Assembly: GCF_002854065.1 (NCBI RefSeq)
Contig: NZ_CP024147.1
Strand: one strand, 5' to 3'
DNA: 64,000 nucleotides
DNA from: Escherichia coli
GTDB lineage: Bacteria > Pseudomonadota > Gammaproteobacteria > Enterobacterales > Enterobacteriaceae
Below, one piece after another: positions 1 through 42,122 of the stretch. The notes under the pieces were generated by a model that worked only from the letters and a program-made list of their open reading frames with translations, was not told the origin of the DNA and did not search any database. How positions within the stretch are numbered: the stretch's first letter is position 1; the number at the start of each line of letters is the position of its first letter. The translations under genes and the position numbers were made by a program.

Positions 1-152
1 CTTTTTAGGGAGCAAGTAAGTCTAAGCAAACCTTAACAGCAGAGAATTCCGATATTAGATGTAAATATATGTCTATCTATTTGAAAACCCTTAAGTTGTT
101 AAGGGTAACTTTACATAAAAGTGTGAACAAGCTGGCACAAATTGTTTAATGT
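1..152 (-). promoter_or_regulatory. Intergenic region downstream of ogt, probably the upstream/promoter region of fnr (fnr itself lies beyond the window edge)
   Basis: Non-coding AT-rich sequence 3-prime of ogt; in the K-12 arrangement fnr follows ogt on the same strand. No specific binding site was confidently identified. Confidence 0.3.
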
Positions 153-668
153 TTACAGCAAAAGATAACCTTCGTGGCGCAATAACCACTCTTTTCGCTG
201 AACTCCGCCTGCATATCCGGTCATGGTGCCGTTTCGGCCAATAACCCGATGGCAAGGTACGACGATGCTGATGGGATTCGATCCGTTTGCCGCACCAACG
301 GCACGCGCCGCGCCAGGGCGGCCCAATTGTTCAGCCAGTTGGCCGTAATGCATTACCTGCCCGCAGGGAATGGTGCGTAGTGTTTTCCAGACTTCGCGCT
401 GAAATGGCGTCCCCCCTGTGGCAGTGGGAAGCGTATCAATAATGCTAAGATTACCGGCAAAATAATCACGAAGCTTGTCGCTTAAACCGCCTGGGTTGGT
501 GGCAGAAATGCGCTCATAGCCTTCTTTGCGATAATGGATGTCCAGAAGCTGCACCATGCGTTCGCTGTACTCTTCCCATTCAACCGCCCGCAGACGAAAT
601 TGCTCATCGCAAATCACCCACAGTGGACCCAGTGGCGTGGCAATTTTTTCTTCAAGTAATCTCAGCAT
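153..668 (-). CDS. ogt: O6-methylguanine-DNA methyltransferase
   Basis: 171-aa ORF with the PCHRV active-site cysteine motif; sequence recognised as Ogt. Confidence 0.92.
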
Positions 669-678
669 CCGTTCTCTC

Positions 679-747
679 TTAAGACAAACGTGGGTAAATC
701 CCCGGACCTATCGGCAGACCAACAAGATACCACGCCAGCAACATCAG
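679..747 (-). pseudogene. abgT: 3-prime remnant of abgT (aminobenzoyl-glutamate transporter) truncated by IS1
   Basis: Minus-strand reading ends ...[22 protein letters not shown]-stop a few bp upstream of the ogt start and runs directly into the IS1 end at 748; hydrophobic transporter-like C-terminus. Identity inferred from the K-12 neighbourhood. Confidence 0.55.
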
Positions 748-802
748 GGTGATGCTGCCAACTTACTGATTTAGTGTATGATGGTGTTTTTGAGGTGCTC
801 CA

Positions 803-1078
803 GTGGCTTCTGTTTCTATCAGCTGTCCCTCCTGTTCAGCTACTGACGGGGTGGTGCGTAACGGCAAAAGCACTGCCGGACATCAGCGCTATCTCTGCTC
901 TCACTGCCGTAAAACATGGCAACTGCAGTTCACTTACACCGCTTCTCAACCCGGTACGCACCAGAAAATCATTGATATGGCCATGAATGGCGTTGGATGC
1001 CGGGCAACCGCCCGCATTATGGGCGTTGGCCTCAACACGATTTTCCGCCATTTAAAAAACTCAGGCCGCAGTCGGTAA
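803..1078 (+). CDS. insA: IS1 InsA (transposition inhibitor / N-terminal part of transposase)
   Basis: 91-aa [43 protein letters not shown]..., recognised as InsA. Confidence 0.93.
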
Positions 1079-1500
1079 CCTCGCGCATACAGCCGGGCAG
1101 TGACGTCATCGTCTGCGCGGAAATGGACGAACAGTGGGGATACGTCGGGGCTAAATCGCGCCAGCGCTGGCTGTTTTACGCGTATGACAGGCTCCGGAAG
1201 ACGGTTGTTGCGCACGTATTCGGTGAACGCACTATGGCGACGCTGGGGCGTCTTATGAGCCTGCTGTCACCCTTTGACGTGGTGATATGGATGACGGATG
1301 GCTGGCCGCTGTATGAATCCCGCCTGAAGGGAAAGCTGCACGTAATCAGCAAGCGATATACGCAGCGAATTGAGCGGCATAACCTGAATCTGAGGCAGCA
1401 CCTGGCACGGCTGGGACGGAAGTCGCTGTCGTTCTCAAAATCGGTGGAGCTGCATGACAAAGTCATCGGGCATTATCTGAACATAAAACACTATCAATAA
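997..1500 (+). CDS. insB: IS1 InsB reading frame (expressed as InsAB' transposase by a -1 frameshift at A6C)
   Basis: 167-aa ORF in the -1 frame relative to insA, overlapping its 3-prime end; A6C slippery motif at 1054..1060. Confidence 0.9.
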
Positions 1501-1515
1501 GTTGGAGTCATTACC

Positions 1516-1656
1516 GGTTCGTAGCTGACTAAACGTGAGTTCTTGCATCAACAGTCGCGCCGCGCTATTGGCATAAATTAACTGTTCCTCAAAGGGCGAA
1601 ACGATCCAGACAGGACTGGTGAGTAAGTCCAGGGTATTGAAGTTGTGCGTAATCAT
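1516..1656 (-). pseudogene. dgcM: 5-prime remnant (47 codons) of diguanylate cyclase dgcM (ydaM) truncated by IS1
   Basis: Minus-strand reading MITHNFNTLDLLTSPVWIVSPFEEQLIYANSAARLLMQELTFSQLRT runs directly into the IS1 right end at 1515; divergent from zntB as in K-12. Identity is from memory of the DgcM N-terminus and gene context. Confidence 0.6.
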
Positions 1657-1889
1657 TGAGATCCCATTATTTTTATCAATTTTTGTTGCTATCCGATCGC
1701 AAAAAAGCCACATCATATGATCAGATAATTCTGATAATGATAGACGCTATTTAACACTTCACACGGTTTGTATACGGAAAAGCATTTTGCTTTTTGTATT
1801 CAATTTAGACAGAATTTTATTAATCATTTCAGGGTAATGGGGTGATGAGATGTTGCGTAACAGGGCCAGAAGGCTAGACTACAAAATAA

Positions 1890-2894
<1,005 letters not shown>

Positions 2895-2989: not shown

Positions 2990-3111
2990 GCAGGTGAATG
3001 CAACGTCAAGCGATGGGCGTTGCGCTCCATATTGTCTTACTTCCTTTTTTGAATTACTGCATAGCACAATTGATTCGTACGACGCCGACTTTGATGAGTC
3101 GGCTTTTTTTT
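2990..3111 (+). ncRNA. fnrS: FnrS small regulatory RNA (FNR-activated, Hfq-dependent)
   Basis: Sequence GCAGGTGAATGCAACGTCAAGCGATGGGCG...CTTACTTCCTTTTTTGAATTACTGCATAGC... ending in hairpin GCCGACTttgatgAGTCGGC plus T8; lies in the zntB-dbpA intergenic region, where fnrS maps in K-12. Confidence 0.8.
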
Positions 3112-4873: not shown

Positions 4874-5809
4874 TTATTTCACTTCAACCACATTCAGCCG
4901 TAACTCATCCAACTGATTTTCATCTTCTTCTGGCTGCCAGCCCGCCGGTTGTAGTGGGATCTCTTCGCGATCAAACGCCAGATCACCCCCGTTAACCACT
5001 TCAGAACCGTGGGTGATGCCTTTGAAATCGAACAGGTTGGTATCGCACAGATGCGACGGCACCACATTCTGCATCGCGCTGAACATCGTCTCGATACGCC
5101 CTGGATAACGTTTATCCCAGTCACGCAACATGTCAGCAATCACCTGACGTTGCAGGTTAGGCTGTGAACCGCACAGGTTGCACGGAATAATGGGGAACGC
5201 TTTTGCATCGGCAAATCGCTGAATATCTTTCTCGCGGCAGTAGGCCAGCGGACGAATAACGATATGTTTGCCATCATCGCTCATCAGTTTCGGAGGCATA
5301 CCTTTCATCTTGCCGCCGTAGAACATATTTAAGAACAGCGTCTGCAGGATATCGTCACGATGGTGACCCAGCGCGATCTTCGTCGCCCCCAGTTCCGTTG
5401 CGGTACGATAAAGAATACCGCGACGAAGGCGAGAACACAGTGAGCAAGTGGTTTTGCCCTCTGGAATCTTCTCTTTCACGATACCGTAAGTGTTCTCTTC
5501 AACAATCTTGTACTCAACGCCCAGCTTTTCAAGATACTCGGGCAGAACGTGCTCCGGGAAGCCCGGTTGCTTTTGATCGAGGTTAACAGCCACCAGCGAA
5601 AAATTGATTGGCGCGCTTTGCTGCAAATTGCGCAGAATCTCCAGCATGGTATAGCTGTCTTTACCCCCGGAGAGGCAAACCATGATGCGATCGCCTTCTT
5701 CAATCATATTGAAGTCAGCAATGGCTTCGCCCACGTTACGACGCAGGCGTTTTTGTAATTTGTTCAGGTTGTATTGTTCTTTCTTGCTAATTTCTTGATT
5801 TTGCGACAT
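4874..5809 (-). CDS. ttcA: tRNA 2-thiocytidine(32) synthetase TtcA
   Basis: 311-aa ORF with PP-loop SGGKDS and Cys-X-X-Cys motifs. Confidence 0.92.
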
Positions 5810-5951
5810 TTAAAAGCGACTCAATTCGTTATATGGCATCAGAAGAGTATGCGTCATGCCGGAACGCCCAGCATAAGAAATCTGATATAAAAACTGTGGC
5901 GTGTATGGTACGGATTAGAGAGGAAAATGTCAGCACATTTGCGAAATGAAT

Positions 5952-5977
5952 CAAAAAGCCCGCAGCAATGTGCGGGC
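5952..5977 (-). terminator. Rho-independent terminator downstream of uspF
   Basis: GCCCGCA/TGCGGGC hairpin followed by a U-run on the minus strand, just 3-prime of the uspF stop. Confidence 0.7.
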
Positions 5978-5984
5978 GTTAGTG

Positions 5985-6500
<516 letters not shown>

Positions 6501-7693: not shown

Positions 7694-7920
7694 TGAATAA
7701 ATCCTTTAGTTATTTTATTTGCCTTTTATCCCCATTTCGGGGAGTGAAAACATCCTAAAGGAGAAGTTCAGTTAGCCGATAAATATCATTTGTTACGCCT
7801 TAAGTAAAACCTTAATCAAATAATTCCTCTGAAATGATAATAAGTCTGGTGAATGTATCGAAGATAATACATACAAAATAAAAATTATACTTTTTATTTT
7901 CTATACGTTATTCTGCGCGG

Positions 7921-8029
7921 GTTATATGCCTTTATTGTCACAGATTTTATTTTCTGTTGGGCCATTGCATTGCCACTGATTTTCCAACATATAAAAAGAC
8001 AAGCCCGAACAGTCGTCCGGGCTTTTTTT
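7921..8029 (+). ncRNA. micC: MicC small RNA (Hfq-dependent repressor of ompC)
   Basis: Sequence GTTATATGCCTTTATTGTCACAGATTTTATTTTCTGTTGGGCC... ending in GCCCGAACAGTCGTCCGGGC plus T7; sits in the ompN-pfo intergenic region, divergent from ompN. Confidence 0.85.
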
Positions 8030-8057
8030 AGAATTGGATAATCCTTATCCAGAGCAT

Positions 8058-11000
8058 TTAATCGGTGTTGCTTTTTTCCGCTTTTCCGGCCATTTGTGCC
8101 AGGAAGTCATAGCGTTTTTGCAAATCAGCTGCAGCATCTTTCCATAACTGTTCTGCCACTTCTGGCTGCTGCGAATTCAGACGACGGAAACGTTGCTCGT
8201 GAAGTAACGTTTCTTCCAGTGCTTCTGACGGCGGGCGTGAATCCAGCGCCAGCGGCAGTTTGCCTTCATCGGCACGACGCGGATCGAAGCGATATAGCGG
8301 CCAGAAGCCGGTAGCTGTGAGTTGGCGCATCTGGTCATGGCTGAGTGCCAGATCGTAACCATGCTCTTCACACGGGCTATAAGCAATGATCAGCGATGGT
8401 CCCGGATACGCTTCCGCTTCCTGAATCGCTTTCACCGTCTGGTTCAGTTGCGCGCCGAGAGAAATCTGCGCCACATAAACATGACCGTACATCATCATAC
8501 TGACGCCAAGATCTTTACGCGCTTTACGTTTGCCGTGCTCGCCAAATTTAGTTACTGCACCCAGCGGTGTCGCTTTCGACGCCTGACCACCGGTGTTGGA
8601 ATAGCATTGCGTATCCAGCACCAGAATGTTGACGTTTTCCGTCAAACTCAATACATGATCCAGACCGCCAAAGCCGATATCGTAAGCCCAGCCGTCGCCA
8701 CCAATCAGCCAGATTGATTTTTCTACCAGTGCATCTGCGTCACGCAGCAGTTCATGTGCTTCGGCAACATCGTTGAGTTGCTGGCGTAAAGCTGCGACCT
8801 GTTCTCGACGAACCTCTGGCGTAGCGTCTGATTTCAACGCCGTCAGTAATTCCGCCGGGATTTTATCGGCAAATTGATCCAGCAGACGCAGCACGCGGAC
8901 ACGGTGTTGATCGACCGTCAGGCGGAAACCAAGGCCAAATTCGGCATTATCTTCAAATAGAGAGTTCGCCCATGCCGGCCCACGACCGTTGGCATCGGTG
9001 GTATACGGTGTAGAGGGCAGGTTACCGCCATAAATTGAAGAACAGCCGGTGGCGTTAGCGATCAACATCCGGTCGCCATAGAGCTGAGTCAGCAATTTAA
9101 TATACGGCGTCTCGCCACAACCGGAGCAAGCACCGGAATATTCAAACAGCGGTGTAATCAGCTGCGATGTACGAATATCAATACGTTCCAGTTTGCTACG
9201 GTCTATTTCTGGCAGGTTGAGGAAGAAATCGTAATTGATTTTCTCTTCTTCGACATGTTCCAGGCGAGACATCATATTGATGGCTTTAATCTCTGGATTC
9301 TGACGGTCTTTCGCCGGGCAAACTTCGACGCACAGGTTACAACCGGTGCAATCTTCCGGTGCCACCTGCAAGACATATTTCTGCCCGCGCATATCACGCG
9401 ATTTCACATCCAGCGAATGCAGGCTGGCAGGGGCGTTTTCCATCGCTTCAGGCGGCACCACTTTTGCGCGAATAGCTGAGTGTGGGCAAGCGGCAACGCA
9501 GTGGTTACATTGGGTACAGAGTTCCTCTTTCCAGATGGGGATCTCTTCGGCGATATTGCGTTTTTCCCAGCGTGTAGTGCCCATCGGCCAGGTGCCGTCT
9601 GGCGGCAGCGCCGAAACGGGGAGGGCATCACCAAGCCCGGCGAGCATCGCAGCGGTTACGGTTTTCACGAAATCAGGGGCGGCATCGGAAACCACTGGCG
9701 GTCGATTGGCGCTGTGCGGATTTACCGGTTGCAACGGAACTTCTTCTACGGATTCACGCGCCAGCGCCAGAGCCTGCCAGTTGCGCTCCACCAGATCCTG
9801 GCCTTTGCTACTGTAACTTTTGGCAATCGCACCCTGCAATTCTGCGAGGGCGCTATCGCCAGGCAGAATTTGCGTCAGATGGAAAAAAGCCATCTGCATG
9901 ACGGTATTAATACGGGCCGCCAGGCCACATTCGCGGGCGATTTTCGCTGCGTTAATCACATAGAAGCACGCTTTTTTCTGGTTTAACACGGCCTGAACTT
10001 CTTGCGGCAAGCGCGACCACACTTCATCTGCGCTGTACGGCGTGTTGAGCAGGAAAATGCCGCCAGGTTTTAAACGCTCAGCCATCTGATATTTATCGAT
10101 AAACTGCAACTGGTGGCAGCCAACAAAATCAGCCTGGGAAATGAGATAAGCGGAACGAATCGGCTGTTCGCTCACTCGAAGGTGAGAAACCGTCAGACCG
10201 CCCGCCTTTTTGGAGTCGTAAACAAAATAGCCCTGTGCGTACCACGGCGTGGAATTACCGATAATCTTGATATTGTTTTTGGTCGCGGAAACGCTGCCAT
10301 CACTACCAAGGCCATAAAACAAGGCTTCCAGTTTCGCCGAGTTTGGCAGGGTGTTTTCCGGCAACGGCAGTGACAGATTGGTCACATCATCGTAAATACC
10401 AACCGTAAAGCGCGCTTTCGGTTTAGCCGCGTTGAGCTCGGCAAATACCGCCAGTACACAGTCCGGGCCAAATTCTTTGGATGAAAGACCATAGCGCCCA
10501 CCAATGACACGGGGCAGAGTTTCGCGCTCGCCATTATTAAAGGCTTCTGCCAGTGCGGTCATTACATCCAGATAGAGCGGTTCTGCCTGGGCACCGGGTT
10601 CTTTGGTTCTGTCCAGTACCGCTACGCTGCGTACGGATCCCGGCAGAGCTTGCAGCAAGTGTTTGGCGGAGAAGGGACGGTACAGGCGAACTTTCAGCAC
10701 GCCAACTTTTTCGCCACGGGTTAGCAATTCATCAACCACTTCTTCACAGGTGCCAATGGCAGAGCCCATCAGGATAATCACCCGTTCCGCTTGCGGATGC
10801 CCGTAATATTCAAACGGCTGATACTGACGACCTGTCGCGGCAGAGAAATCATTCATCGCCTGTTCAACATGGTCATAGACCGCGTTGTACCATGGGTTGG
10901 TGGCTTCGCGAGACTGGAAATAAGTGTCAGGATTGGCGGACGTACCGCGGATCACCGGATGTTCCGGGTTGAGCGCCCGGGCGCGATGAGCATCAATTTC

Positions 11001-11582
11001 GGCCTGCGGCATGAGATCAAGAATAGTGTCATCGGCCAGCGGGACAATTTTATTGATTTCGTGGGACGTACGGAAACCATCAAAGAAATGAATAAATGGC
11101 ACGCGGCTTTTCAGCGTCGCGATGTGCGAAATGAGAGCAAAGTCTTGCGCTTCCTGGACGTTTGCCGCACACAACATCGCGCAACCCGTCTGGCGCACCG
11201 CCATGACGTCGGAATGATCGCCAAAAATAGAGAGTGCATGTGTGGCAACGGTACGTGCCGCTACATGCAGGACAAACGGTGTGAGTTCGCCTGCCAGTTT
11301 GTACAGCGTCGGGATCATCAGCAGCAAACCCTGCGATGACGTAAACGATGTTGAAAGGGCACCCGTCTGCAAAGCGCCATGCACGGTAGCGATAGCACCC
11401 GCTTCCGACTGCATTTCAACCACGCGTGGTGTGTCTCCCCAAACGTTCTTCAAGCCGTTTCCGGCCCAGGCATCAGCCTGTTCTGCCATCGTGGAACTGG
11501 GGGTAATAGGGTAGATGGCGATAACTTCACTGGTGCGAAACGCCACCGAAGCAACCGCGCCATTACCGTCAATAGTAATCAT
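8058..11582 (-). CDS. pfo: Pyruvate:flavodoxin oxidoreductase (PFOR family)
   Basis: 1174-aa ORF with 4Fe-4S ferredoxin cysteine clusters (CTQCNHCVAACP, CTGCNLCVEVCP) and a TPP-binding domain; recognised as YdbK. Confidence 0.92.
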   Translation of the reverse strand: MITIDGNGAVASVAFRTSEVIAIYPITPSSTMAEQADAWAGNGLKNVWGDTPRVVEMQSEAGAIATVHGALQTGALSTSFTSSQGLLLMIPTLYKLAGELTPFVLHVAARTVATHALSIFGDHSDVMAVRQTGCAMLCAANVQEAQDFALISHIATLKSRVPFIHFFDGFRTSHEINKIVPLADDTILDLMPQAEIDAHRARALNPEHPVIRGTSANPDTYFQSREATNPWYNAVYDHVEQAMNDFSAATGRQYQPFEYYGHPQAERVIILMGSAIGTCEEVVDELLTRGEKVGVLKVRLYRPFSAKHLLQALPGSVRSVAVLDRTKEPGAQAEPLYLDVMTALAEAFNNGERETLPRVIGGRYGLSSKEFGPDCVLAVFAELNAAKPKARFTVGIYDDVTNLSLPLPENTLPNSAKLEALFYGLGSDGSVSATKNNIKIIGNSTPWYAQGYFVYDSKKAGGLTVSHLRVSEQPIRSAYLISQADFVGCHQLQFIDKYQMAERLKPGGIFLLNTPYSADEVWSRLPQEVQAVLNQKKACFYVINAAKIARECGLAARINTVMQMAFFHLTQILPGDSALAELQGAIAKSYSSKGQDLVERNWQALALARESVEEVPLQPVNPHSANRPPVVSDAAPDFVKTVTAAMLAGLGDALPVSALPPDGTWPMGTTRWEKRNIAEEIPIWKEELCTQCNHCVAACPHSAIRAKVVPPEAMENAPASLHSLDVKSRDMRGQKYVLQVAPEDCTGCNLCVEVCPAKDRQNPEIKAINMMSRLEHVEEEKINYDFFLNLPEIDRSKLERIDIRTSQLITPLFEYSGACSGCGETPYIKLLTQLYGDRMLIANATGCSSIYGGNLPSTPYTTDANGRGPAWANSLFEDNAEFGLGFRLTVDQHRVRVLRLLDQFADKIPAELLTALKSDATPEVRREQVAALRQQLNDVAEAHELLRDADALVEKSIWLIGGDGWAYDIGFGGLDHVLSLTENVNILVLDTQCYSNTGGQASKATPLGAVTKFGEHGKRKARKDLGVSMMMYGHVYVAQISLGAQLNQTVKAIQEAEAYPGPSLIIAYSPCEEHGYDLALSHDQMRQLTATGFWPLYRFDPRRADEGKLPLALDSRPPSEALEETLLHEQRFRRLNSQQPEVAEQLWKDAAADLQKRYDFLAQMAGKAEKSNTD

Positions 11583-11855
11583 ATGACACCCTTACATTGC
11601 GCAAATGAGGGGCGCACGAAATTGCTGCGCGCCCAGTAGTAATCTTTCAATTTTAGCAAATGGCTTTCTTCTGCATTTTCGCTTTTGTGTCCCCCACATC
11701 AGAGTAATGAATGTTTTGATCAAACAGAGGGCAAAAAAATAGCCATAAAAAAGTAAAAATGCGGGGCAACGCGCAGGACAGCTCTCGACGCCGCCCTCTG
11801 TGCTGCCTATTATTTATGGCGGTGTCGTTTGGCTTGAAGATCAGAGGAAGAAGAG

Positions 11856-12122
11856 ATGCGAGCAGCGTTTTGGGTAGGGTGTGCCGCTTTATTGTTGTCG
11901 GCGTGTAGTAGTGAGCCTGTTCAGCAGGCGACTGCGGCGCACGTAGCGCCAGGTTTAAAAGCGTCGATGTCCAGTAGTGGAGAAGCAAATTGTGCAATGA
12001 TCGGCGGTTCGCTTTCTGTTGCCCGTCAACTGGATGGTACGGCGATTGGGATGTGTGCATTACCCAACGGCAAACGCTGTAGCGAACAGTCACTTGCCGC
12101 CGGGAGCTGTGGCAGCTATTAA
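11856..12122 (+). CDS. ydbJ: Small lipoprotein YdbJ (DUF333)
   Basis: 88-aa ORF with lipobox LLSAC. Confidence 0.8.
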   Translation: MRAAFWVGCAALLLSACSSEPVQQATAAHVAPGLKASMSSSGEANCAMIGGSLSVARQLDGTAIGMCALPNGKRCSEQSLAAGSCGSY

Positions 12123-12541
12123 TTCATTAAATCCGCCAGCTTATAAGTTAATGTCTGTTTCGCGGTCGCCAGCGTTAACTGGTTCGCGGTCAGATCCACT
12201 TGTGCACCTTCTTTCAGCATTTCGCTAATGGTGTTATCGAGTTCATTAAGCTGCGGGTTAGCGCACATCATACGGGTCATTGCCAGCCCTTTGGCTGTCA
12301 GTTCACCATTAGACAGTTTGCCTTCACCGCTAAAGCGGTTACACATGCTGCCGGAAATCATCATTTTTTCACCAAAGCTGATTTCTGGCGGATTTTTATC
12401 GCTGGTCACGGGCTTACCGTTTACGCTTTCCAGCACAAAGCGATGATGCTGTAGCTGTTCTGGCGTAACAGCAATTTTGTCATTACTTACACATCCCGCC
12501 ATCAGCAGGCTTAGCGCAACAAACGCGGCTACTTTCTTCAT
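12119..12541 (-). CDS. hslJ: Heat-shock lipoprotein HslJ
   Basis: 140 aa from MKKVAAFVALSLLMAGC (lipobox). The ORF-track start at 12553 is a 4-codon extension. Confidence 0.88.
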   Translation of the reverse strand: MKKVAAFVALSLLMAGCVSNDKIAVTPEQLQHHRFVLESVNGKPVTSDKNPPEISFGEKMMISGSMCNRFSGEGKLSNGELTAKGLAMTRMMCANPQLNELDNTISEMLKEGAQVDLTANQLTLATAKQTLTYKLADLMN

Positions 12542-12651
12542 TGTGGTTCTCAATTACAGTTTCTGACTCAGGACTATTTTAAGAATAGAGAATGAAAGGT
12601 CATTGGGGATTATCTGAATCAGCTCCCCTGGATTGCAGGGGAGCGGCAAGA

Positions 12652-13641
12652 TTAAACCAGTTCGTTCGGGCAGGTTTCACCTTTTTCCAGATTGCTTAAG
12701 TTTTGCAGCGTAGTCTGAGAAATACTGGTCAGAGCTTCTGCTGTCAGGAATGCCTGGTGCCCGGTAAACAGCACGTTGTGGCAGGCGGACAGGCGACGGA
12801 ATACGTCATCCTGGATCACGTCGTTGGATTTATCTTCAAAGAACAGATCGCGTTCGTTCTCATACACGTCCATACCCAACGAACCAATTTTCTGATTTTT
12901 CAGCGCTTCAATTGCTGCCTGAGAATCAATCAATGCACCGCGACTGGTATTGACGATCATCACGCCATTTTTCATCTGATCGAAGGCGGCTTCGTTCAAC
13001 AGATGGTAGTTTTCCGGTGTCAGCGGGCAGTGCAGAGAGATAACGTCTGATTCAGAGAACAGGGTTGGCAGATCGACATACTCCACACCGAGTTCCAGCG
13101 CCGCTGCACTTGGATACGGATCGAACGCCAGCAGACGCATACCAAAACCTTTCAGAATGCGCAGCATCGCCACACCGATTTTACCGGTACCGATAACGCC
13201 TGCCGTTTTGCCATACATAGTAAAGCCAGTCAGACCTTCTAGAGAGAAGTTGGCGTCACGGGTACGCTGATACGCGCGGTGAATACGGCGGTTCAGCGTC
13301 ATCATCATACCGATGGCGTGTTCAGCAACGGCCTCTGGATCATAGGCTGGAACACGGACTACTTTCAGCCCCAGTTCTTTTGCCGCGTCAAGGTCGACGT
13401 TATTGAAACCGGCACAGCGCAGGGCGATATATTTAACGCCGTGCTTTTTCAGCTCTTCCAGCACCGGGCGGCTGCCGTCATCGTTTACGAAAATACATAC
13501 TGCTTCGCAGCCATTGGCAGTTTTAGCGGTTTTTTCCGTCAGCAGAAAGTCAAAAAATTCCAGCTCAAAGCCAAAGGACTCGTTCACCTGTTGCAGGTAC
13601 TTCTTGTCGTACTGTTTTGTGCTATAAACGGCGAGTTTCAT
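12652..13641 (-). CDS. ldhA: Fermentative D-lactate dehydrogenase (NAD-dependent)
   Basis: 329-aa ORF with D-isomer 2-hydroxyacid dehydrogenase NAD-binding motif GVIGTGKIG. Confidence 0.95.
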   Translation of the reverse strand: MKLAVYSTKQYDKKYLQQVNESFGFELEFFDFLLTEKTAKTANGCEAVCIFVNDDGSRPVLEELKKHGVKYIALRCAGFNNVDLDAAKELGLKVVRVPAYDPEAVAEHAIGMMMTLNRRIHRAYQRTRDANFSLEGLTGFTMYGKTAGVIGTGKIGVAMLRILKGFGMRLLAFDPYPSAAALELGVEYVDLPTLFSESDVISLHCPLTPENYHLLNEAAFDQMKNGVMIVNTSRGALIDSQAAIEALKNQKIGSLGMDVYENERDLFFEDKSNDVIQDDVFRRLSACHNVLFTGHQAFLTAEALTSISQTTLQNLSNLEKGETCPNELV

Positions 13642-13848
13642 AAGACTTTCTCCAGTGATGTTGAATCACATTTAAGCTACTAAAAATATTTTACAAAATT
13701 TCAAATTTAATTGAAAGCTATGGCGATATTGAAAAATTCATCAACAACTATGCTTAGTGTAGGCGCAACCTTCAACTGAACGGTTAAACATGCCACAATA
13801 CCCGTATTGAATGCTTAATTTTTCGCTAAATCAGGATATTAACTACCC

Positions 13849-16488
13849 ATGCTGGGTAAATATAAAGCCGTTCTCGCGCTGTTATTACTGATTATTCTTG
13901 TGCCGTTGACGCTGCTGATGACGCTCGGGCTGTGGGTTCCCACGCTGGCGGGCATCTGGCTACCGCTCGGGACACGTATTGCATTAGATGAAAGCCCACG
14001 CATTACGCGTAAAGGTTTAATCATTCCCGATCTCCGTTATCTGGTGGGAGATTGTCAGCTTGCGCATATCACCAACGCCAGCCTTTCACATCCCAGCCGC
14101 TGGTTATTGAACGTCGGCACGGTAGAACTTGATTCTGCTTGTCTGGCGAAATTGCCGCAGACGGAGCAATCGCCAGCTGCTCCAAAAACCCTCGCGCAAT
14201 GGCAGTCCATGCTGCCTAACACCTGGATCAATATTGATAAACTGATTTTTTCTCCCTGGCAGGAATGGCAGGGAAAACTCTCTCTCGCATTAACCTCCGA
14301 TATCCAGCAACTGCGTTATCAGGGCGAAAAAGTTAAATTTCAAGGCCAGCTGAAAGGGCAACAACTTACAGTCAGCGAACTGGATGTCGTCGCGTTTGAA
14401 AATCAGCCGCCGGTTAAACTGGTGGGGGAATTTACTATGCCGCTAGTGCCGGATGGACTTCCTGTAAGTGGTCATGCTACTGCGACGTTAAACTTGCCGC
14501 AGGAACCGTCACTGGTAGATGCCGAGCTGGACTGGCAGGAAAATAGCGGGCAATTGATTGTGCTGGCACGGGATAACGGCGATCCGTTGCTCGATTTGCC
14601 GTGGCAAATTACGCGTCAACAATTGACCGTAAGCGATGGTCGCTGGAGCTGGCCGTATGCAGATTTTCCTTTGAGTGGCCGACTGGGTGTCAAAGTCGAC
14701 AACTGGCAGGCAGGGCTTGAGAACGCTCTGGTCAGCGGACGACTGAGTGTGCTGACCCAGGGGCAAGCGGGTAAGGGCAACGCGGTGCTTAATTTTGGCC
14801 CAGGAAAATTAAGCATGGATAACAGCCAGCTGCCTCTGCAGCTGACCGGTGAAGCGAAACAGGCGGACCTCATTTTATATGCCCGTTTACCTGCGCAGGT
14901 AAGTGGAAGTCTGTCTGACCCAACGCTGACCTTTGAGCCAGGCGCGTTACTTCGTTCAAAGGGAAGAGTCATCGATTCGCTGGACATCGATGAAATCCGC
15001 TGGCCTTTAGCGGGTGTAAAAGTCACCCAACGTGGTGTTGACGGACGTTTGCAGGCCATTTTGCAGGCGCATGAAAATGAACTGGGCGATTTCGTGCTGC
15101 ATATGGATGGGCTGGCGAATGATTTTCTCCCTGACGCTGGCCGCTGGCAGTGGCGCTACTGGGGAAAAGGGAGTTTTACACCGATGAATGCCACCTGGGA
15201 TGTCGCAGGAAAAGGTGAGTGGCATGACAGCACGATTACGCTGACCGATCTCTCCACCGGTTTCGACCAGTTACAATACGGTACGATGACGGTAGAAAAG
15301 CCGCGATTAATTCTCGACAAGCCCGTCGTCTGGGTACGTGACGCACAGCATCCCTCCTTCAGCGGCACGCTGTCACTGGACGCCGGGCAAACGCTGTTCA
15401 CTGGCGGCAGTGTGTTACCGCCATCAACCTTAAAATTTAGCGTCGATGGGCGCGATCCGACGTATTTCCTCTTTAAAGGCGATTTACATGCTGGTGAGAT
15501 TGGCCCGGTTCGGGTAAATGGTCGCTGGGACGGTATTCGTCTGCGCGGTAATGCCTGGTGGCCTAAACAATCACTGACTGTATTCCAGCCGCTGGTGCCA
15601 CCCGACTGGAAGATGAACTTACGCGATGGTGAACTGTATGCTCAGGTTGCATTTTCTGCTGCGCCTGAACAAGGATTCCGCGCGGGAGGGCACGGCGTGT
15701 TGAAAGGCGGTAGTGCCTGGATGCCAGATAATCAGGTTAACGGTGTCGATTTTGTCCTGCCTTTCCGTTTTGCCGATGGAGCCTGGCATCTGGGGACTCG
15801 CGGCCCCGTTACGTTGCGAATTGCCGAAGTGATTAATCTGGTGACAGCGAAAAATATTACGGCTGATTTGCAAGGGCGTTATCCGTGGACTGAAGAAGAA
15901 CCATTGCTGTTGACTGATGTTAGCGTCGATGTGTTAGGCGGTAACGTGCTGATGAAACAATTACGTATGCCGCAACATGACCCGGCGCTGTTGCGGCTGA
16001 ATAATCTCTCATCCAGCGAACTGGTTAGCGCCGTCAATCCGAAACAATTTGCCATGTCCGGGGCATTTAGTGGTGCATTGCCGTTATGGCTGAACAATGA
16101 AAAATGGATTGTCAAAGAGGGCTGGTTGGCAAACGCGGGGCCGATGACGCTGCGTCTGGATAAAGACACTGCAGATGCGGTGGCCAAAGACAATATGACC
16201 GCTGGAACTGCCATCAACTGGTTGCGTTATATGGAAATCAGTCGCTCATCAACAAGGATTAATTTAGATAATCTCGGTGTGTTAACCATGCAGGCCAACA
16301 TTTCGGGCACCAGTCGCGTCGATGGTAAAAGCGGTACGGTAAACCTTAATTATCACCATGAAGAGAATATTTTTACGTTATGGCGCAGTTTACGCTTTGG
16401 CGATAATCTCCAGGTATGGCTGGAGCAGAATGCCCAGCTACCGGAAACTGGCTGCCCATCAGGAAAAGAGTGTGAGGAAAAACAATGA
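13849..16488 (+). CDS. ydbH: AsmA-like inner-membrane protein YdbH (TamB/YhdP paralogue)
   Basis: 879-aa ORF with N-terminal TM anchor and a long beta-rich periplasmic region. Confidence 0.88.
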   Translation: MLGKYKAVLALLLLIILVPLTLLMTLGLWVPTLAGIWLPLGTRIALDESPRITRKGLIIPDLRYLVGDCQLAHITNASLSHPSRWLLNVGTVELDSACLAKLPQTEQSPAAPKTLAQWQSMLPNTWINIDKLIFSPWQEWQGKLSLALTSDIQQLRYQGEKVKFQGQLKGQQLTVSELDVVAFENQPPVKLVGEFTMPLVPDGLPVSGHATATLNLPQEPSLVDAELDWQENSGQLIVLARDNGDPLLDLPWQITRQQLTVSDGRWSWPYADFPLSGRLGVKVDNWQAGLENALVSGRLSVLTQGQAGKGNAVLNFGPGKLSMDNSQLPLQLTGEAKQADLILYARLPAQVSGSLSDPTLTFEPGALLRSKGRVIDSLDIDEIRWPLAGVKVTQRGVDGRLQAILQAHENELGDFVLHMDGLANDFLPDAGRWQWRYWGKGSFTPMNATWDVAGKGEWHDSTITLTDLSTGFDQLQYGTMTVEKPRLILDKPVVWVRDAQHPSFSGTLSLDAGQTLFTGGSVLPPSTLKFSVDGRDPTYFLFKGDLHAGEIGPVRVNGRWDGIRLRGNAWWPKQSLTVFQPLVPPDWKMNLRDGELYAQVAFSAAPEQGFRAGGHGVLKGGSAWMPDNQVNGVDFVLPFRFADGAWHLGTRGPVTLRIAEVINLVTAKNITADLQGRYPWTEEEPLLLTDVSVDVLGGNVLMKQLRMPQHDPALLRLNNLSSSELVSAVNPKQFAMSGAFSGALPLWLNNEKWIVKEGWLANAGPMTLRLDKDTADAVAKDNMTAGTAINWLRYMEISRSSTRINLDNLGVLTMQANISGTSRVDGKSGTVNLNYHHEENIFTLWRSLRFGDNLQVWLEQNAQLPETGCPSGKECEEKQ

Positions 16489-17001: not shown

Positions 17002-17408
17002 ATTATAGTTGGCTACAAAATGTATCTATTAATGATCTTTTACAGTATTTAAACTGACGTTAGCATGCTTAATTACCGTGGGTATTTCTACAAAAACCTT
17101 ATATATCCTTCCCTTAAATAACAAATCATTACCAATATATATGTAATCACAAAATATATATGCAGCGTCAATGAATTATTAGTGTGTTTTTGTTTTTTGT
17201 CGTTAATTTTTAGATTGAAGTGAGTTTTTTGTGGAATATAATTCCATCAACTGTTTTTTTGTATGCTTTTACTTGCCTGATTTTAATATTGATTTTGTGA
17301 ATTATATAAGCATTTCTTTATTGCTTATTTCACTATGAATATTTACTACGATTTATCTTCAAATTCTGCATGGCTTGTTACGCACGGTCTAGATCTAAGG
17401 AATTTTAT

Positions 17409-20400
17409 ATGCAAAGGAAAAAATTATTGTCTGTTTGTGTTGCCATGGCGTTAAGTAGCCAGACATGGGCTGCGGATACTTCAATACCCGACTCAACCGA
17501 AAAAACACGTAAGTCCAGTAAGATAACATGTCCGGCAAATATTCATTCCCTGAGCAAAGAGCAGCTAGAAAATTTATCCGCGGAGTGCAGAGAAAATAAA
17601 GATAGTGCAGTTTTACCATGGGCAGCTGCAGGTCTTGCTGCAGTAGCTACGGGAATTGCTATATATACCTTAAGTGACGATGACAATCACCACCATAATA
17701 ACTCCCCAGTTCCGGATGATGGCGGTGATACGCCAGTTCCGCCAGACGACGGCGGTGATACGCCGGTTCCGCCAGATGACGGCGGTGATACGCCGGTTCC
17801 GCCAGATGACGGCGGTGATACGCCAGTTCCGCCAGATGACGGCGGTGATACGCCAGTTCCGCCAGATGACGGCGATGATACGCCGGTTCCGCCAGATGAC
17901 GGCGGTGATACGCCAGTTCCGCCAGATGACGGCGGTGATACGCCAGTTCCGCCAGATGACGGCGGTGATACGCCGGTTCCACCAGATGATGGCGGTGATA
18001 CGCCAGTTCCAGACGACGGCGGTGATACGCCTGTTCCGCCAGACGATGGTGGCGATACCCCGGTTAAACACGATCCTGTCGTCTATAAAAATGACGTAAC
18101 CTGGGATCAGGACGCGAAAACCGTCAAAATTCGCGAAACCACCTTTACCTACAGCCAAAATGCCGATGGGAGTTACACCTTAACCGCGCCTGATGGCCTG
18201 ACGACGATAGTCAAGGGCTGGACAGTCCATGACGACAGCAACACCGTCATCTTTGATGGCGTAAATACGGCAGGTGGCATCACCTGGAGCTACGACGATG
18301 ATGGGCTCATCCATATCACTAAAGAGGCCGGTGTCGTTGTTGATGGCACAACCGGAACTGCGATTGATTTTGGTAATGCGATCATCACCGATCAGGGCGG
18401 CAATACGGCGCTGAATGGCGGTACTGTCATGACGGTTGAGGGTGACAACATCACCCTCAACAACGACGGTAAAACGACCGCCATCGGCGAGGGTTCGGTC
18501 GTTGGTATCCTTACTGGTGACGATATCACTATCAATAACAACGGCGAGACGGAAGTTGACGGCGGTACCGCAGTAATCATCAATGGCGATAATGCTACGC
18601 TGAACACTGCGGGCGACTCGACCATCACCAATGGTGGTACGGGTAGCCTTATCAATGGCGATAATGCGCGGGTCGATAATCAAGGTACCATGAGCGTTGA
18701 CGGTGAGAATTCCACTGGCTCGAAAATTGTCGGTGACGGTGCCACCATCAAACAGGAAGGCGACTTATACGTAAGCGGTGGTGCGCACGGTATTGACGTT
18801 GACGGCAATGATACGTTCGTTAGCAACAAAGGTAATATTACGGTCATCGAAGATAACTCTATTGGCATGCTGCTTGATGGTGATGGCGTCAGCGTGATCA
18901 ACATGGGCGACCTCAATGTTGGTCAGGCCGCAGCGGGTGAAAATGCCATTGGCATTCAGATCGACGGTGATAATGCGACATTTGTTAACGTTGGTGATAT
19001 TTCCGCGACCAATGCCGGAACCGGTGTCAGCGTTGCTGGGGATAAAGCTAATATTTCACTCGCGGGTGGGTTAGACGTTGGGGATTTCTCCACCGGTCTT
19101 GATGTCTCTGGCAATAATAACAACATGACGCTGGCGACTTATGAGCTGAATGTGACAGGGCAAAAAGCGACGGGTGTTAATGTTTCGGGTGATGGCAATA
19201 CGATTGAAATCGCAGGCAGCATTCTGGTTGATAAAGATCAGAAAGCCGATAATGCGCAACCTTACTTCTTTAATCCCTCAACCGGCGTAAATATCAGCGG
19301 TAATAACAATGACGTCACGCTGGATGGTCAGTTAACCGTTGTTGCTGATAGCGAAACCACTACGCGTTCCTATGCAAGTTACGACGGTGCTCAGGAGCAC
19401 ATTGCGGGTATTGTTATTGCTGGCGATGACAATACCTTCACGCTTAATGGCGGTGTCCATTTTGTCGGTGAAAAAAATGTCATGGATGATGGCTCAAAAC
19501 CTGCCGCATCTCGTCGTGGTATCGGAGATACACCGCTTATGAGCGTTGATGGGCATTCCTCAGTCTACCTCAATGGTGAGTCAACCATCAGCGGTGAGTT
19601 CCCGCTGGGTTTCGAAAATCTCATTCAACTGAGTAATGGCGCGGAGCTGGAGATTGGCGCTGACGCAACGTTTGATATGAGTGATGTGGATTCTTTCACT
19701 TATTATTATCGTGTAGCGTTATCCACTATTAGTATTGATTATGGTGCGAAGGCGACAAACAACGGTGAAGTGGAACTGAAAAATATCGGTTTTGCGGCTG
19801 CCTGGAATAAAGATTCAACGGTAATCAATAACGGATCCATTGGCCTGGCGATGTACGATTTTGGTACCGACCCGGCACCAAAAGTCTTTGACGTTGAATA
19901 CGGTGGGATTGGCGTTAACAATGGTACCATGACCACCAAAATGATGAATCAGCACAGTGTGCTGAATTATCCGGCAGAGTGGAACTTGTCTGATGGTACC
20001 TCTTTCAATAACAAGGCATTAGGGCTGACAGGTATGCTTGCCAGCTACTCGTCATCCATTCTGAACGGCGAAACGGGCATTATTGATATGTATGGCCGTG
20101 GCAGTGTAGGGATGCTAGCCATCGATAAATCAACCGCGGATAACGAAGGGCAAATCACCCTGGATACGCTGTGGGTTGATGAAAATGATGAAACATCGCT
20201 GCGTAATAATGTTGCAAATAGCACGGCGAAAGATTTCGGTGTGGGAATGGCTTCAGGTACCGATGCCTATAATGGGGCATTAACTAAAGCCACGGCAACC
20301 AACCACGAGAATGGTGTGATTACTGTCTACAACGCCGGTGCGGGGATGGCGGCGTATGGGAATACTAATACGGTCATTAACCAGGGAACCATCAACCTGG

Positions 20401-23273
20401 AGAAAAATGAAAATTACAACGATTCTCTCGGTGTGAATAAACTCGTCGGCATGGCGGTTTATCACGAAGGCACCGCCATTAATGACCAGACAGGCGTAAT
20501 CAACATTAACGCGGAAAATGGTCAGGCATTCTATAACGATGGCACTGGGCTTATTATCAACTATGGCACAATTTGTACCTTTGGCGTTTGCCAGGGGGCC
20601 GATGAATATAATCCAACGGATAATTATATTGCCGATTTATATGATCATGGCGATGTATTAAGTTCTGCGGGTGAGACCGTATTATTATCGTCAGGTGCGA
20701 TTATCAACGGGGATGTCACCAGTGCGGGTGCTGTTAAAAATGGAACGATCAGGATACTCGAAAATGGTGCGCTGGTTAACGAGTCGAGCGGAACCATTAG
20801 CTCAGCCATCGTCGTGAATGAAGGCGGTGCGTTAACCAATGAAGGTGTATTGAACACGGTGACTCTGGAAGGAGGAACCTTCAATAACAACGGAACGCTT
20901 AATGACGTCGTAAAAATTGAGAAAAACAGCAACGCGGTAATTAATAACACCGGTTCCCTGTCAACTTTACAACTTCACGATGGTACGGTGAATAACAGCG
21001 GTATTGCGTCGGCGCGCGTTAACGCTCAGGGCGATGCGGTATTCAATAACCTTGCAGGCGGCGAGGCGCGTAAAGGCGCGATTCTCTATAACTCTGCGGT
21101 AGTGAATAACGCGGGTACCTGGAAAATGGGTTATCAGGATGAAAACAACAATGCCGGGACGCTGGATATTGACGATAAGTCAACGTTCAACAACAGCGGC
21201 AAACTCATCCTTGATAACAGCAAAAACGCCATTCGCTTCCAGGGCAGCAATGCTAACGCCACGTTATATAACACCGGTGAAATGACGCTGGATGCCGCAT
21301 TAGGTGCGGGCGCTATTCACTACGACGATGGCGCCAGCCAGTTTATTAACAAGGGCGTGGTGGATGCGAAAGTCACCGTGGCGGTAAGTACTGCCGGTGC
21401 GACAGAAAGCGATGCCTTCTTGTGGAACCAGGATGGCGGGGTAATTAACTTCGATAAAGACAACGCCAGCGCGGTTAAATTCACCCACAACAACTATGTT
21501 GCTCTCAACGATGGTGTAATGAACATCAGCGGCAACAACGCCGTGGCGATGGAAGGCGATAAAAACGCACAGCTGGTTAACAACGGTGTTATCAATCTCG
21601 GTACCGAAGGCACCACCGATACCGGATTGACTGGTATGCAACTGGATGCCAATGCCACCGCCGATGCGGTAATTGAGAACAACGGCACGATCAATATTTT
21701 TGCTAACGACTCGTTTGCGTTCAGCGTACTGGGCACAGAAGGTCATATCGTTAACAACGGTACGGTGGTGATTGCCGACGGCGTGACTGGTTCGGGGTTG
21801 ATTAAGCAGGGCGACAGCGTGAATGTGGAAGGGGTGAACGGCAACAGCGGTAACAATACCGAAGTGCATTACACCGACTACACGTTGCCGGACATGCCAA
21901 GCTCTTACACCACTTCACCTTTCAGTGAAACGACTGATAGCGGTAGTAGCGATGGCAGCAGTAACAATCTTAACGGCTATATCGTCGGTACCAACGTTGA
22001 TGGCAGCGCCGGTAAACTGAAGGTCAACAACGCCAGCATGAATGGTGTCGGGATCAACACCGGTTTCGCCGCCGGTACGGCAGACACCACGGTCAGTTTC
22101 GACAACGTGGTGGAAGGCATCAACCTGACCGACGCCGATGCCATCACCTCAACGTCCGTGGTATGGACCGCCAAAGGCAGCACCGATGCCAGCGGCAACG
22201 TTGACGTCATCATGAGCAAAAACGCCTACACCGATGTGGCGACCGATGCTTCGGTGAACGATGTGGCGAAGGTACTGGATGCGGGTTACACCAATAACGA
22301 GCTGTATACCAGCCTGAACGTGGGCACCACTGCTGAACTGAATAGCGCCCTGAAGCAGGTGAGCGGTAGCCAGGCGACCACGGTATTCCGTGAAGCGCGT
22401 GTGTTAAGCAACCGCTTCAGCATGCTGGCGGATGCCGCGCCGAAGGTGGGTAACGGTCTGGCGTTCAACGTTGTTGCGAAAGGCGATCCACGTGCCGAGT
22501 TAGGTAATAATACCGAATACGACATGCTGGCATTGCGTAAAACCATCGACCTGAGCGAAAGCCAGACGATGAGTCTGGAGTACGGTATCGCTCGTCTCGA
22601 TGGTGATGGTGCGCAGAAAGCGGGTGGTAATGGCGTCACAGGTGGTTATAGCCAGTTCTTTGGCCTGAAACATCAGATGTCCTTCGACAACGGCATGAAC
22701 TGGAATAACGCATTGCGTTATGACGTTCACAACCTTGACAGTAGCCGTTCGATTGCATTTAGCAACACAAACAAAACGGCTGATACCGACGTGAAGCAGC
22801 AGTACCTGGAGTTCCGCAGCGAAGGGGCGAAGACTTTCGAACCGAGCGAAGGACTGAAGGTTACGCCATATGCGGGTGTAAAACTGCGTCACTCGCTGGA
22901 AGGCGGCTATCAGGAGCGCAATGCCGGAGACTTTAACCTGAGCATGAACAGCGGCAGCGAAACGGCGGTGGACAGCATCGTCGGGCTGAAACTGGACTAC
23001 GCAGGGAAAGGCGGCTGGAGCGCGAATGCGACGCTGGAAGGCGGGCCGAACCTGAGCTACAGCAAGAGCCAGCGCACGGCAAGCCTTGCAGGGGCAGGCA
23101 GCCAGCACTTTAACGTCGATGACGGTCAGAAGGGCGGCGGTATCAACAGCCTGGCGAGCGTCGGCGTGAAGTACAGTAGCAAAGAAAGTTCGCTGAATCT
23201 GGATGCGTATCACTGGAAAGAGGACGGCATCAGCGACAAAGGCGTGATGCTGAACTTTAAGAAAACGTTCTAA
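17409..23273 (+). CDS. ydbA: Autotransporter (type Va) adhesin-like protein YdbA, apparently intact
   Basis: About 1954 aa: signal peptide MQRKKLLSVCVAMALSSQTWA, PPDDGGDTPV tandem repeats, long Gly/Asn/Thr-rich beta-helix passenger, C-terminal beta-barrel ending ...MLNFKKTF. Confidence 0.85.
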   Translation: MQRKKLLSVCVAMALSSQTWAADTSIPDSTEKTRKSSKITCPANIHSLSKEQLENLSAECRENKDSAVLPWAAAGLAAVATGIAIYTLSDDDNHHHNNSPVPDDGGDTPVPPDDGGDTPVPPDDGGDTPVPPDDGGDTPVPPDDGGDTPVPPDDGDDTPVPPDDGGDTPVPPDDGGDTPVPPDDGGDTPVPPDDGGDTPVPDDGGDTPVPPDDGGDTPVKHDPVVYKNDVTWDQDAKTVKIRETTFTYSQNADGSYTLTAPDGLTTIVKGWTVHDDSNTVIFDGVNTAGGITWSYDDDGLIHITKEAGVVVDGTTGTAIDFGNAIITDQGGNTALNGGTVMTVEGDNITLNNDGKTTAIGEGSVVGILTGDDITINNNGETEVDGGTAVIINGDNATLNTAGDSTITNGGTGSLINGDNARVDNQGTMSVDGENSTGSKIVGDGATIKQEGDLYVSGGAHGIDVDGNDTFVSNKGNITVIEDNSIGMLLDGDGVSVINMGDLNVGQAAAGENAIGIQIDGDNATFVNVGDISATNAGTGVSVAGDKANISLAGGLDVGDFSTGLDVSGNNNNMTLATYELNVTGQKATGVNVSGDGNTIEIAGSILVDKDQKADNAQPYFFNPSTGVNISGNNNDVTLDGQLTVVADSETTTRSYASYDGAQEHIAGIVIAGDDNTFTLNGGVHFVGEKNVMDDGSKPAASRRGIGDTPLMSVDGHSSVYLNGESTISGEFPLGFENLIQLSNGAELEIGADATFDMSDVDSFTYYYRVALSTISIDYGAKATNNGEVELKNIGFAAAWNKDSTVINNGSIGLAMYDFGTDPAPKVFDVEYGGIGVNNGTMTTKMMNQHSVLNYPAEWNLSDGTSFNNKALGLTGMLASYSSSILNGETGIIDMYGRGSVGMLAIDKSTADNEGQITLDTLWVDENDETSLRNNVANSTAKDFGVGMASGTDAYNGALTKATATNHENGVITVYNAGAGMAAYGNTNTVINQGTINLEKNENYNDSLGVNKLVGMAVYHEGTAINDQTGVININAENGQAFYNDGTGLIINYGTICTFGVCQGADEYNPTDNYIADLYDHGDVLSSAGETVLLSSGAIINGDVTSAGAVKNGTIRILENGALVNESSGTISSAIVVNEGGALTNEGVLNTVTLEGGTFNNNGTLNDVVKIEKNSNAVINNTGSLSTLQLHDGTVNNSGIASARVNAQGDAVFNNLAGGEARKGAILYNSAVVNNAGTWKMGYQDENNNAGTLDIDDKSTFNNSGKLILDNSKNAIRFQGSNANATLYNTGEMTLDAALGAGAIHYDDGASQFINKGVVDAKVTVAVSTAGATESDAFLWNQDGGVINFDKDNASAVKFTHNNYVALNDGVMNISGNNAVAMEGDKNAQLVNNGVINLGTEGTTDTGLTGMQLDANATADAVIENNGTINIFANDSFAFSVLGTEGHIVNNGTVVIADGVTGSGLIKQGDSVNVEGVNGNSGNNTEVHYTDYTLPDMPSSYTTSPFSETTDSGSSDGSSNNLNGYIVGTNVDGSAGKLKVNNASMNGVGINTGFAAGTADTTVSFDNVVEGINLTDADAITSTSVVWTAKGSTDASGNVDVIMSKNAYTDVATDASVNDVAKVLDAGYTNNELYTSLNVGTTAELNSALKQVSGSQATTVFREARVLSNRFSMLADAAPKVGNGLAFNVVAKGDPRAELGNNTEYDMLALRKTIDLSESQTMSLEYGIARLDGDGAQKAGGNGVTGGYSQFFGLKHQMSFDNGMNWNNALRYDVHNLDSSRSIAFSNTNKTADTDVKQQYLEFRSEGAKTFEPSEGLKVTPYAGVKLRHSLEGGYQERNAGDFNLSMNSGSETAVDSIVGLKLDYAGKGGWSANATLEGGPNLSYSKSQRTASLAGAGSQHFNVDDGQKGGGINSLASVGVKYSSKESSLNLDAYHWKEDGISDKGVMLNFKKTF
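17706..18064 (+). repeat. About 12 tandem copies of a 30-bp repeat (one 27-bp unit) encoding PPDDGGDTPV within ydbA
   Basis: Near-identical head-to-tail units GATGACGGCGGTGATACGCCAGTTCCGCCA with occasional wobble changes; one unit encodes GDDTPV. The mirror-image ORFs in the track here are repeat artefacts. Confidence 0.9.
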
Positions 23274-25715: not shown

Positions 25716-25770
25716 GGTGATGCTGCCAACTTACTGATTTAGTGTATGATGGTGTTTTTGAGGTGCTCCA

Positions 25771-26046
25771 GTGGCTTCTGTTTCTATCAGCTGTCCCTCC
25801 TGTTCAGCTACTGACGGGGTGGTGCGTAACGGCAAAAGCACTGCCGGACATCAGCGCTATCTCTGCTCTCACTGCCGTAAAACATGGCAACTGCAGTTCA
25901 CTTACACCGCTTCTCAACCCGGTACGCACCAGAAAATCATTGATATGGCCATGAATGGCGTTGGATGCCGGGCAACCGCCCGCATTATGGGCGTTGGCCT
26001 CAACACGATTTTCCGCCATTTAAAAAACTCAGGCCGCAGTCGGTAA
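25771..26046 (+). CDS. insA: IS1 InsA
   Basis: 91-aa ORF identical to insA of copy 1. Confidence 0.93.
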
Positions 26047-26468
26047 CCTCGCGCATACAGCCGGGCAGTGACGTCATCGTCTGCGCGGAAATGGACGAAC
26101 AGTGGGGATACGTCGGGGCTAAATCGCGCCAGCGCTGGCTGTTTTACGCGTATGACAGTCTCCGGAAGACGGTTGTTGCGCACGTATTCGGTGAACGCAC
26201 TATGGCGACGCTGGGGCGTCTTATGAGCCTGCTGTCACCCTTTGACGTGGTGATATGGATGACGGATGGCTGGCCGCTGTATGAATCCCGCCTGAAGGGA
26301 AAGCTGCACGTAATCAGCAAGCGATATACGCAGCGAATTGAGCGGCATAACCTGAATCTGAGGCAGCACCTGGCACGGCTGGGACGGAAGTCGCTGTCGT
26401 TCTCAAAATCGGTGGAGCTGCATGACAAAGTCATCGGGCATTATCTGAACATAAAACACTATCAATAA
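25965..26468 (+). CDS. insB: IS1 InsB reading frame (InsAB' by -1 frameshift)
   Basis: 167-aa ORF; differs from copy 1 by one residue (S vs R). Confidence 0.9.
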
Positions 26469-26483
26469 GTTGGAGTCATTACC

Positions 26484-26492
26484 GTCACAAGC
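26484..26492. repeat. Right 9-bp target-site duplication GTCACAAGC of IS1 copy 2
   Basis: Direct repeat of 25707..25715. Confidence 0.9.

Positions 26493-29186: not shown

Positions 29187-32250
<3,064 letters not shown>

Positions 32251-41972: not shown

Positions 41973-42122
<150 letters not shown>

Follow-up and report, generated by a model that had tools for sequence, protein, structure and literature searches.

Near the left end of the stretch of Escherichia coli DNA analysed here (64 kb in length, hereafter the window), a complete insertion sequence lies between fragments of abgT and dgcM, which raises the question of what DNA has been lost at this site, by what route, and with what consequence for the genes that remain. 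The element (748..1515, plus strand) was identified as a complete IS1 of the IS1B type, with its left and right inverted repeats located at 748-770 and 1493-1515, respectively. These 23-nt terminal repeats (GGTGATGCTGCCAACTTACTGAT ...) are imperfect, being 78% complementary, and the inverted-repeat pattern occurs at only two places in the window, both of them IS1 copies, with none expected by chance. The ORF list places insA at 803..1078 and gives 997..1500 for the insB' frame; the AAAAAAC of the A6C frameshift motif occupies 1054..1060, and all three are intact. The first-pass annotation had called the element IS1, and its length of 768 bp, terminal repeats, two reading frames and frameshift motif bear this out. 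IS1 copies in E. coli strains CUWW06, 100416 and TOK-001 are identical to it (768/768). That of CUWW06 is annotated in RefSeq as an IS1B-family transposase with a programmed frameshift, and the product of the identical copy matches the Pfam families Zn_ribbon_InsA, HTH_Tnp_IS1 and DDE_Tnp_IS1 (PF03811, PF12759 and PF03400).

The 9-mers beside this IS1, caacatcag (739..747) and ggttcgtag (1516..1524), differ from each other, so that there is no target-site duplication, as had been claimed. Its lack marks a rearrangement after insertion and is no argument against the identity of the element as IS1. A second IS1 in the window, located within ydbD (25707..26492, with the IS1 itself at 25716..26483, plus strand), possesses a perfect 9-bp target-site duplication (gtcacaagc); the lack of one is therefore specific to the first copy rather than a trait of IS1 in this genome. 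The two copies differ by one nucleotide, G444T, which changes Arg to Ser in InsB.

The left flank (1..747) aligns to ogt and the last 69 bp of abgT of K-12. The ogt gene (O6-alkylguanine DNA methyltransferase) is an intact coding sequence (153..668, minus strand; a 171-aa ORF aligning to K-12 ogt) and is 100% identical to the corresponding flank of 100416 and CUWW06. Between it and the left end of IS1 lies a 3' stub of abgT (679..747, minus strand), consisting of 22 codons and the stop codon, whose translation is the C-terminus of K-12 AbgT. The right end of IS1 abuts a 5' stub of dgcM (1516..1656, minus strand; start codon at 1654..1656), which aligns to codons 1-47 of K-12 dgcM and lacks most of the PAS sequence as well as the GGDEF domain. 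Both stubs agree with the first-pass annotation, as does the mapping of the flanks to the abgT 3' end and the dgcM 5' end of K-12; they do lie apart in that genome, but by 7,339 bp and not by the 8-9 kb that had been claimed. The frame of the dgcM stub continues into IS1 to form a chimeric ORF of 73 aa ending at 1435 (47 dgcM codons and 26 IS1-derived codons). The retained dgcM promoter should drive a transcript that crosses the 47 codons of the stub and enters IS1 from its right end (1435..1656, minus strand), antisense to insB. An exact-sequence look-up of chimeric ORFs (dgcM-IS1 of 73 aa and 93 aa; ydbD-IS1 of 443 aa) found none on record.

Right of the stub, the dgcM promoter and 5'UTR are retained together with the ynaN/zntB upstream region (1657..1910), collinear with K-12 and 100416. 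Here ynaN is located at approximately 1850..1897 (plus strand), as placed by shifting the K-12 annotation by the alignment offset. The first complete gene right of the scar is zntB, which is intact (1911..2894, plus strand; a 327-aa ORF matching the K-12 annotation), and the order in the window is ynaN, zntB, FnrS, ynaL and dbpA. Rfam matches at the gathering threshold were obtained in the window for FnrS, MicC, RydC and Sok (2990..3107, 7918..8038, 41494..41557 and 42117..42268, respectively), with none for McaS anywhere in the window. The Rac prophage is also absent: ttcA (4874..5809) is immediately followed by uspF and ompN (region 4874..6491), whereas K-12 has intR and Rac beside ttcA.

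Relatives of the window strain were found by a look-up of the exact NifJ protein of the window; its Ogt and DbpA proteins are too widespread to single out the clone. The nearest genomes are CUWW06 (NZ_CP182139.1, complete), 100416 (NZ_CM128593.1) and several drafts, with 99.97-100% identity in collinear DNA. The flanks of the IS1 match 100416 at 747/747 positions on the left and 10,368/10,371 on the right. Over 24 kb, no complete E. coli genome exceeds 98.9% identity to the window, a low whole-query value that is due to the relatives carrying IS1 deletions of their own and variable ydbA repeats. A Shigella origin, considered on account of this value, was rejected in view of the 99.97-100% identity of these E. 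coli strains in the collinear parts. The order of the locus in 100416 is ogt, a 144-bp abgT 3' remnant, a 196-bp abgR remnant, genes for an AraC-family regulator, an HlyD-family protein and a DHA2 MFS efflux permease, then smrA, dgcM, ynaN and zntB. Of mcaS, 74/94 nt survive in 100416 between the AraC gene and the abgR remnant. The abgT stub of the window (69 bp) is what remains of the 144-bp abgT remnant found in the closest relatives.

The abg operon is absent from the nearest genomes, and K-12 is without the AraC/HlyD/DHA2-MFS cassette. Across 5,426 complete E. coli genomes, this cassette adjoins smrA in 1,317 (approximately a quarter) and abgBA is absent from 1,224; at least 80% of dgcM is present in 5,370 (99%). 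The locus is polymorphic in E. coli (the segment at L025 12298..16222 of 100416 is missing from the window). Since the nearest relatives already lack the abg operon and a full mcaS, comparison of the sequences indicates that both were lost before IS1 acted, in an older event independent of IS1.

In 100416, the points corresponding to the two IS1 junctions are 5,785 bp apart (missing interval L025rc 9673..15457). Relative to this genome, the window has lost 75 bp of the abgT remnant, the abgR and mcaS remnants, the AraC/HlyD/MFS cassette, smrA and codons 48-410 of dgcM. The first-pass annotation held that the flanks are not adjacent in K-12; this was found there, at the greater distance given above, and also in 100416. 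The IS flanks are thus non-adjacent in near-identical relatives and the DNA between them is absent from the window, as is found with an adjacent deletion. The first-pass annotation also listed aminobenzoyl-glutamate utilisation, McaS and DgcM as lost: the strain is indeed without abgTBA/abgR, McaS, smrA and a functional dgcM, but removal of the abg operon and McaS by the IS1 event itself does not hold, as the relatives already keep remnants only.

Queries of 120 nt across each junction gave no contiguous match to the left or the right junction in the 5,426 complete E. coli genomes; the few matches reported as 100% covered are made up of two pieces bridged over 234-413 bp. When JGI metagenome contigs were scanned for the exact patterns, the left junction and the right junction gave 0 matches each. 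The allele is private to the source strain, and the mechanism is one already known.

A comparable scar was identified in CUWW06 at the same locus, where an identical IS1 is present in the same orientation, but with its left junction displaced by +245 bp and its right junction by +259 bp relative to the window. This scar, which lies between ogt and ynaN, is flanked by the 9-mers gatctcgtc and cggaaaagc and is associated with a 5,799-bp deletion. The two strains share the same clone-level background (3 mismatches in 15.5 kb) and have lost nearly the same interval (5,799 and 5,785 bp). They differ in that CUWW06 still has all 144 bp of the abgT remnant and a portion of that of abgR, so that its ogt promoter is intact, whereas its dgcM is completely lost, including the promoter-proximal 259 bp. 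The offset of both junctions of CUWW06 from those of the window points to two or more deletion steps. The first-pass annotation had proposed an IS-mediated adjacent deletion; a deletion at the IS1 is upheld, but a single event is unlikely given the offset of both junctions around the same IS1 in CUWW06. The window state cannot have arisen from the CUWW06 state, nor the reverse, but a single further one-ended deletion in each strain would lead to both from a shared intermediate. We infer that this intermediate would have had the left junction of CUWW06 and the right junction of the window.

The locus probably carries, to judge from these comparisons, the scar of stepwise IS1 adjacent deletion from a founder insertion, in a lineage in which IS1 is very active. 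In an ancestor shared by the window strain and CUWW06, a founder IS1 would have inserted somewhere in the interval. An end of this IS1 would then have attacked a nearby target by intramolecular replicative transposition, with loss of the DNA between the IS1 end and the target, while the IS1 itself would have stayed in place and gained one new junction. Adjacent deletion would have happened at least twice, once per side, and with a deletion on each side neither original junction nor the 9-bp duplication would survive. Among the relatives found, there was no simple IS1 insertion with a duplication at either junction or inside the interval; as no founder insertion was observed, the founder is hypothetical. 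Adjacent deletions promoted by IS1 were already known in the 1970s, and Reif and Saedler are reported to have described them in the gal region in 1975. The present scar resembles the classical IS1-promoted deletions (framework in PMC11708052) in its intact IS1 at the junction, the missing duplication, flanks that are non-contiguous in relatives and nested endpoints. It differs from them in that both junctions are unlike those of the sister strain, from which two or more rounds are deduced, and in the hypothetical nature of its founder. When the duplication beside an IS is missing, the usual explanation is either adjacent deletion or recombination between IS copies (PMC11708052).

One-ended series, in which one junction is held in common with a founder, were found for two other sets of IS1 copies, whereas the junctions of the scar are absent from the 5,426 genomes. 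The first set concerns the IS1 in ydbD. At this locus the window has the founder state, while CUWW06 keeps the right junction and its left junction has moved to window position 17317, removing ydbA through the 5' part of ydbD. The left junction is at 17658 in 100416 and the draft L020, and 100416 has its right junction at 29926 (in ynbC). The ydbA frame, which encodes a BigA-type autotransporter, is intact in the window (1,967 aa; 17370..23273) and has internal repeats at approximately 17700..18070, the copy number of which varies among close relatives. The K-12 copy of ydbA is interrupted by IS elements. In 100416, a further simple IS1 is found between cybB and gapC (L033 2487..3254), with the duplication tgcccatcc; this insertion is absent from the window and is more evidence of very recent IS1 activity in the clone.

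The second set comes from an unrelated lineage. The CX21-type strains, the ST536 mussel strains and ECONIH5 have one abgT junction in common and three different right junctions; these lie in mcaS, in dgcM (of which a 255-bp stub is left) and in ynaN, and form a nested one-ended series. As in the window, an IS1 of the same orientation separates abgT from the smrA/dgcM/zntB region, and mcaS, smrA, dgcM and ynaN are progressively lost. However, the IS1 is a different variant (34 mismatches), the abgT junction is another one (1,158 bp of abgT retained) and the background is K-12-like with the abg operon; these events are independent of those in the window. Other independent IS1-linked stubs of dgcM measure 294 bp (MB51) and 300 bp (strain 98224), and in TOK-001 the dgcM-ynaN spacer contains a simple IS1 insertion flanked by an 8-bp duplication. 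Either a hot spot or selection could account for the recurrence of IS1 at the dgcM 5' region.

The scar might instead be the product of homologous (RecA-dependent) recombination between two direct IS1 copies, one at the abgT-stub site and the other at codon 47 of dgcM, that excised 5.8 kb and left one hybrid IS1. Adjacent deletion and recombination between direct IS1 copies leave the same product, a single IS1 with unrelated flanking 9-mers, and the sequence of the scar alone cannot separate them. The lineage does hold many identical IS1 copies at close range, and recombination between IS copies is listed as a frequent cause of missing duplications (PMC11708052). This origin is nonetheless unlikely: an IS1 at either breakpoint occurs in 0/5,426 complete E. 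coli genomes and has no metagenome match, and four sites within 6 kb would each have had to receive an IS1 of their own to account for both the window and CUWW06. In addition, the ydb and CX21/ST536/ECONIH5 series fix one junction and vary the other, which is the one-ended pattern of adjacent deletion.

It is also conceivable that the IS1-linked deletions of the window strain and of CUWW06 arose independently of each other. One such course would be a single-step insertion of IS1 with a 5.8-kb deletion and no duplication (termed IS-Del), occurring separately in each strain. It requires the fewest events, one per strain, and duplication-less IS-Del events have been proposed for other IS families (PMC11708052); the recurrence of IS1-linked dgcM truncations in unrelated lineages also shows that parallel events occur. 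On the other hand, the events in long-term evolution lines that combine an IS with a deletion all involve IS150 and are classed as adjacent deletions (PMC11708052), and the loss of nearly the same 5.8 kb by two sisters, with the same IS1 orientation, would be a coincidence unless selection were strong. A single-step origin is therefore regarded as very unlikely.

The course set out in the first-pass annotation, namely one IS1 adjacent deletion in a K-12-like ancestor that removed abgT-abgB-abgA-abgR-mcaS-smrA-dgcM (7.3 kb), is less credible again and highly improbable. It draws on the mapping of the flanks to K-12 abgT and dgcM at their 7,339-bp spacing, but their identity to K-12 is only 98.3% on the left and 99.0% on the right, whereas they are 100% and 99.97% identical to strains that are without the abg operon and that possess the remnants and the efflux cassette; this cassette lies beside smrA in 5/5 close relatives with an intact dgcM. 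An assembly artefact, in which two IS1 copies around a 5.8-kb segment were collapsed into one, can be set aside almost entirely: a 768-bp IS1 repeat does break or collapse short-read assemblies, and contigs of the draft relatives end inside IS1, but the contiguous 64-kb window resolves two IS1 copies that differ by 1 nt and the complete CUWW06 genome has an analogous deletion.

The scar affects the genes at both of its ends. On the left, the published map of the ogt promoter was placed on the window, K-12 and 100416. This map comprises an extended -10 element (TGGTATCTT), the NarL II site at -44.5 (TATCTTTTTGGTGGTA) and the NarL I site at -77.5 (TACTTACTATTCGTTA) (PMC7419079, main text and Supplementary Fig. 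S3). Without either one of the NarL sites ogt is not induced by nitrate, and NarL I is overlapped by a Fis site (PMC7419079). What remains in the window is a truncated promoter (669..747, minus strand) that keeps the extended -10 (724..732) and the inferred transcript start (approximately 717). IS1 begins at about -31 (junction 747/748) and replaces NarL II, NarL I and the Fis site; the tandem 7-2-7 NarL sites of this promoter (Squire 2009; Ruanto 2020) are thus gone in the window and intact in K-12, 100416 and CUWW06. With both NarL operators lost, ogt is predicted to be without nitrate induction and should no longer respond to nitrate/NarL. A consensus scan of the strand concerned gave no outward promoter in the left end of IS1 that could drive ogt. 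The TTGGCA of the IS1 inverted repeat, 26 nt from the retained -10, was considered in this connection and rejected. The truncation of the ogt promoter was not mentioned in the first-pass annotation.

On the right, the protein affected is DgcM, which together with PdeR and MlrA activates csgD in the model that PMC6029578 summarises. As dgcM is cut to 47 codons without GGDEF, induction of curli and cellulose is predicted to be impaired: in a dgcM null, the DgcM/PdeR/MlrA switch would be incapable of activating csgD, and both products should drop. The genes csgD, mlrA and pdeR lie outside the 64-kb window, and all phenotypic consequences given here are predictions. The smrA gene and the efflux cassette are also lost with the IS1 scar.

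Losses of this kind have been described in other E. coli. In Shigella and pathogenic E. coli, genes for curli and for diguanylate cyclases, dgcM among them, have been inactivated time and again (PMC11327459), and an IS1 in csgB is cited in PMC6029578. The window strain resembles the IS-driven reduction of these organisms in the recurrent loss of curli or c-di-GMP genes. It differs in that dgcM of S. flexneri is inactivated by a nonsense mutation (PMC11327459), in contrast to the IS1 deletion described here. At least five further IS1 junctions that truncate or remove dgcM were found in unrelated lineages. It is rather doubtful that the loss of dgcM at this locus was selected as opposed to being neutral decay; if it was, a single IS1 scar would have cut biofilm signalling as well as alkylation repair loose from environmental cues.

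In one respect, the scar is a routine example of IS1-driven genome reduction, and IS-mediated loss of curli and c-di-GMP genes is already well documented. Together, the window and its sister genomes would trace, as a clean comparative series, how IS1 deletions proceed stepwise from a founder insertion. The locus also illustrates that the DNA deleted by an IS event is wrongly assigned when K-12 serves as the reference. For the organism itself, the prediction is of a natural dgcM null that also carries a natural truncation of the ogt promoter, which could matter for the phenotyping of this clone.
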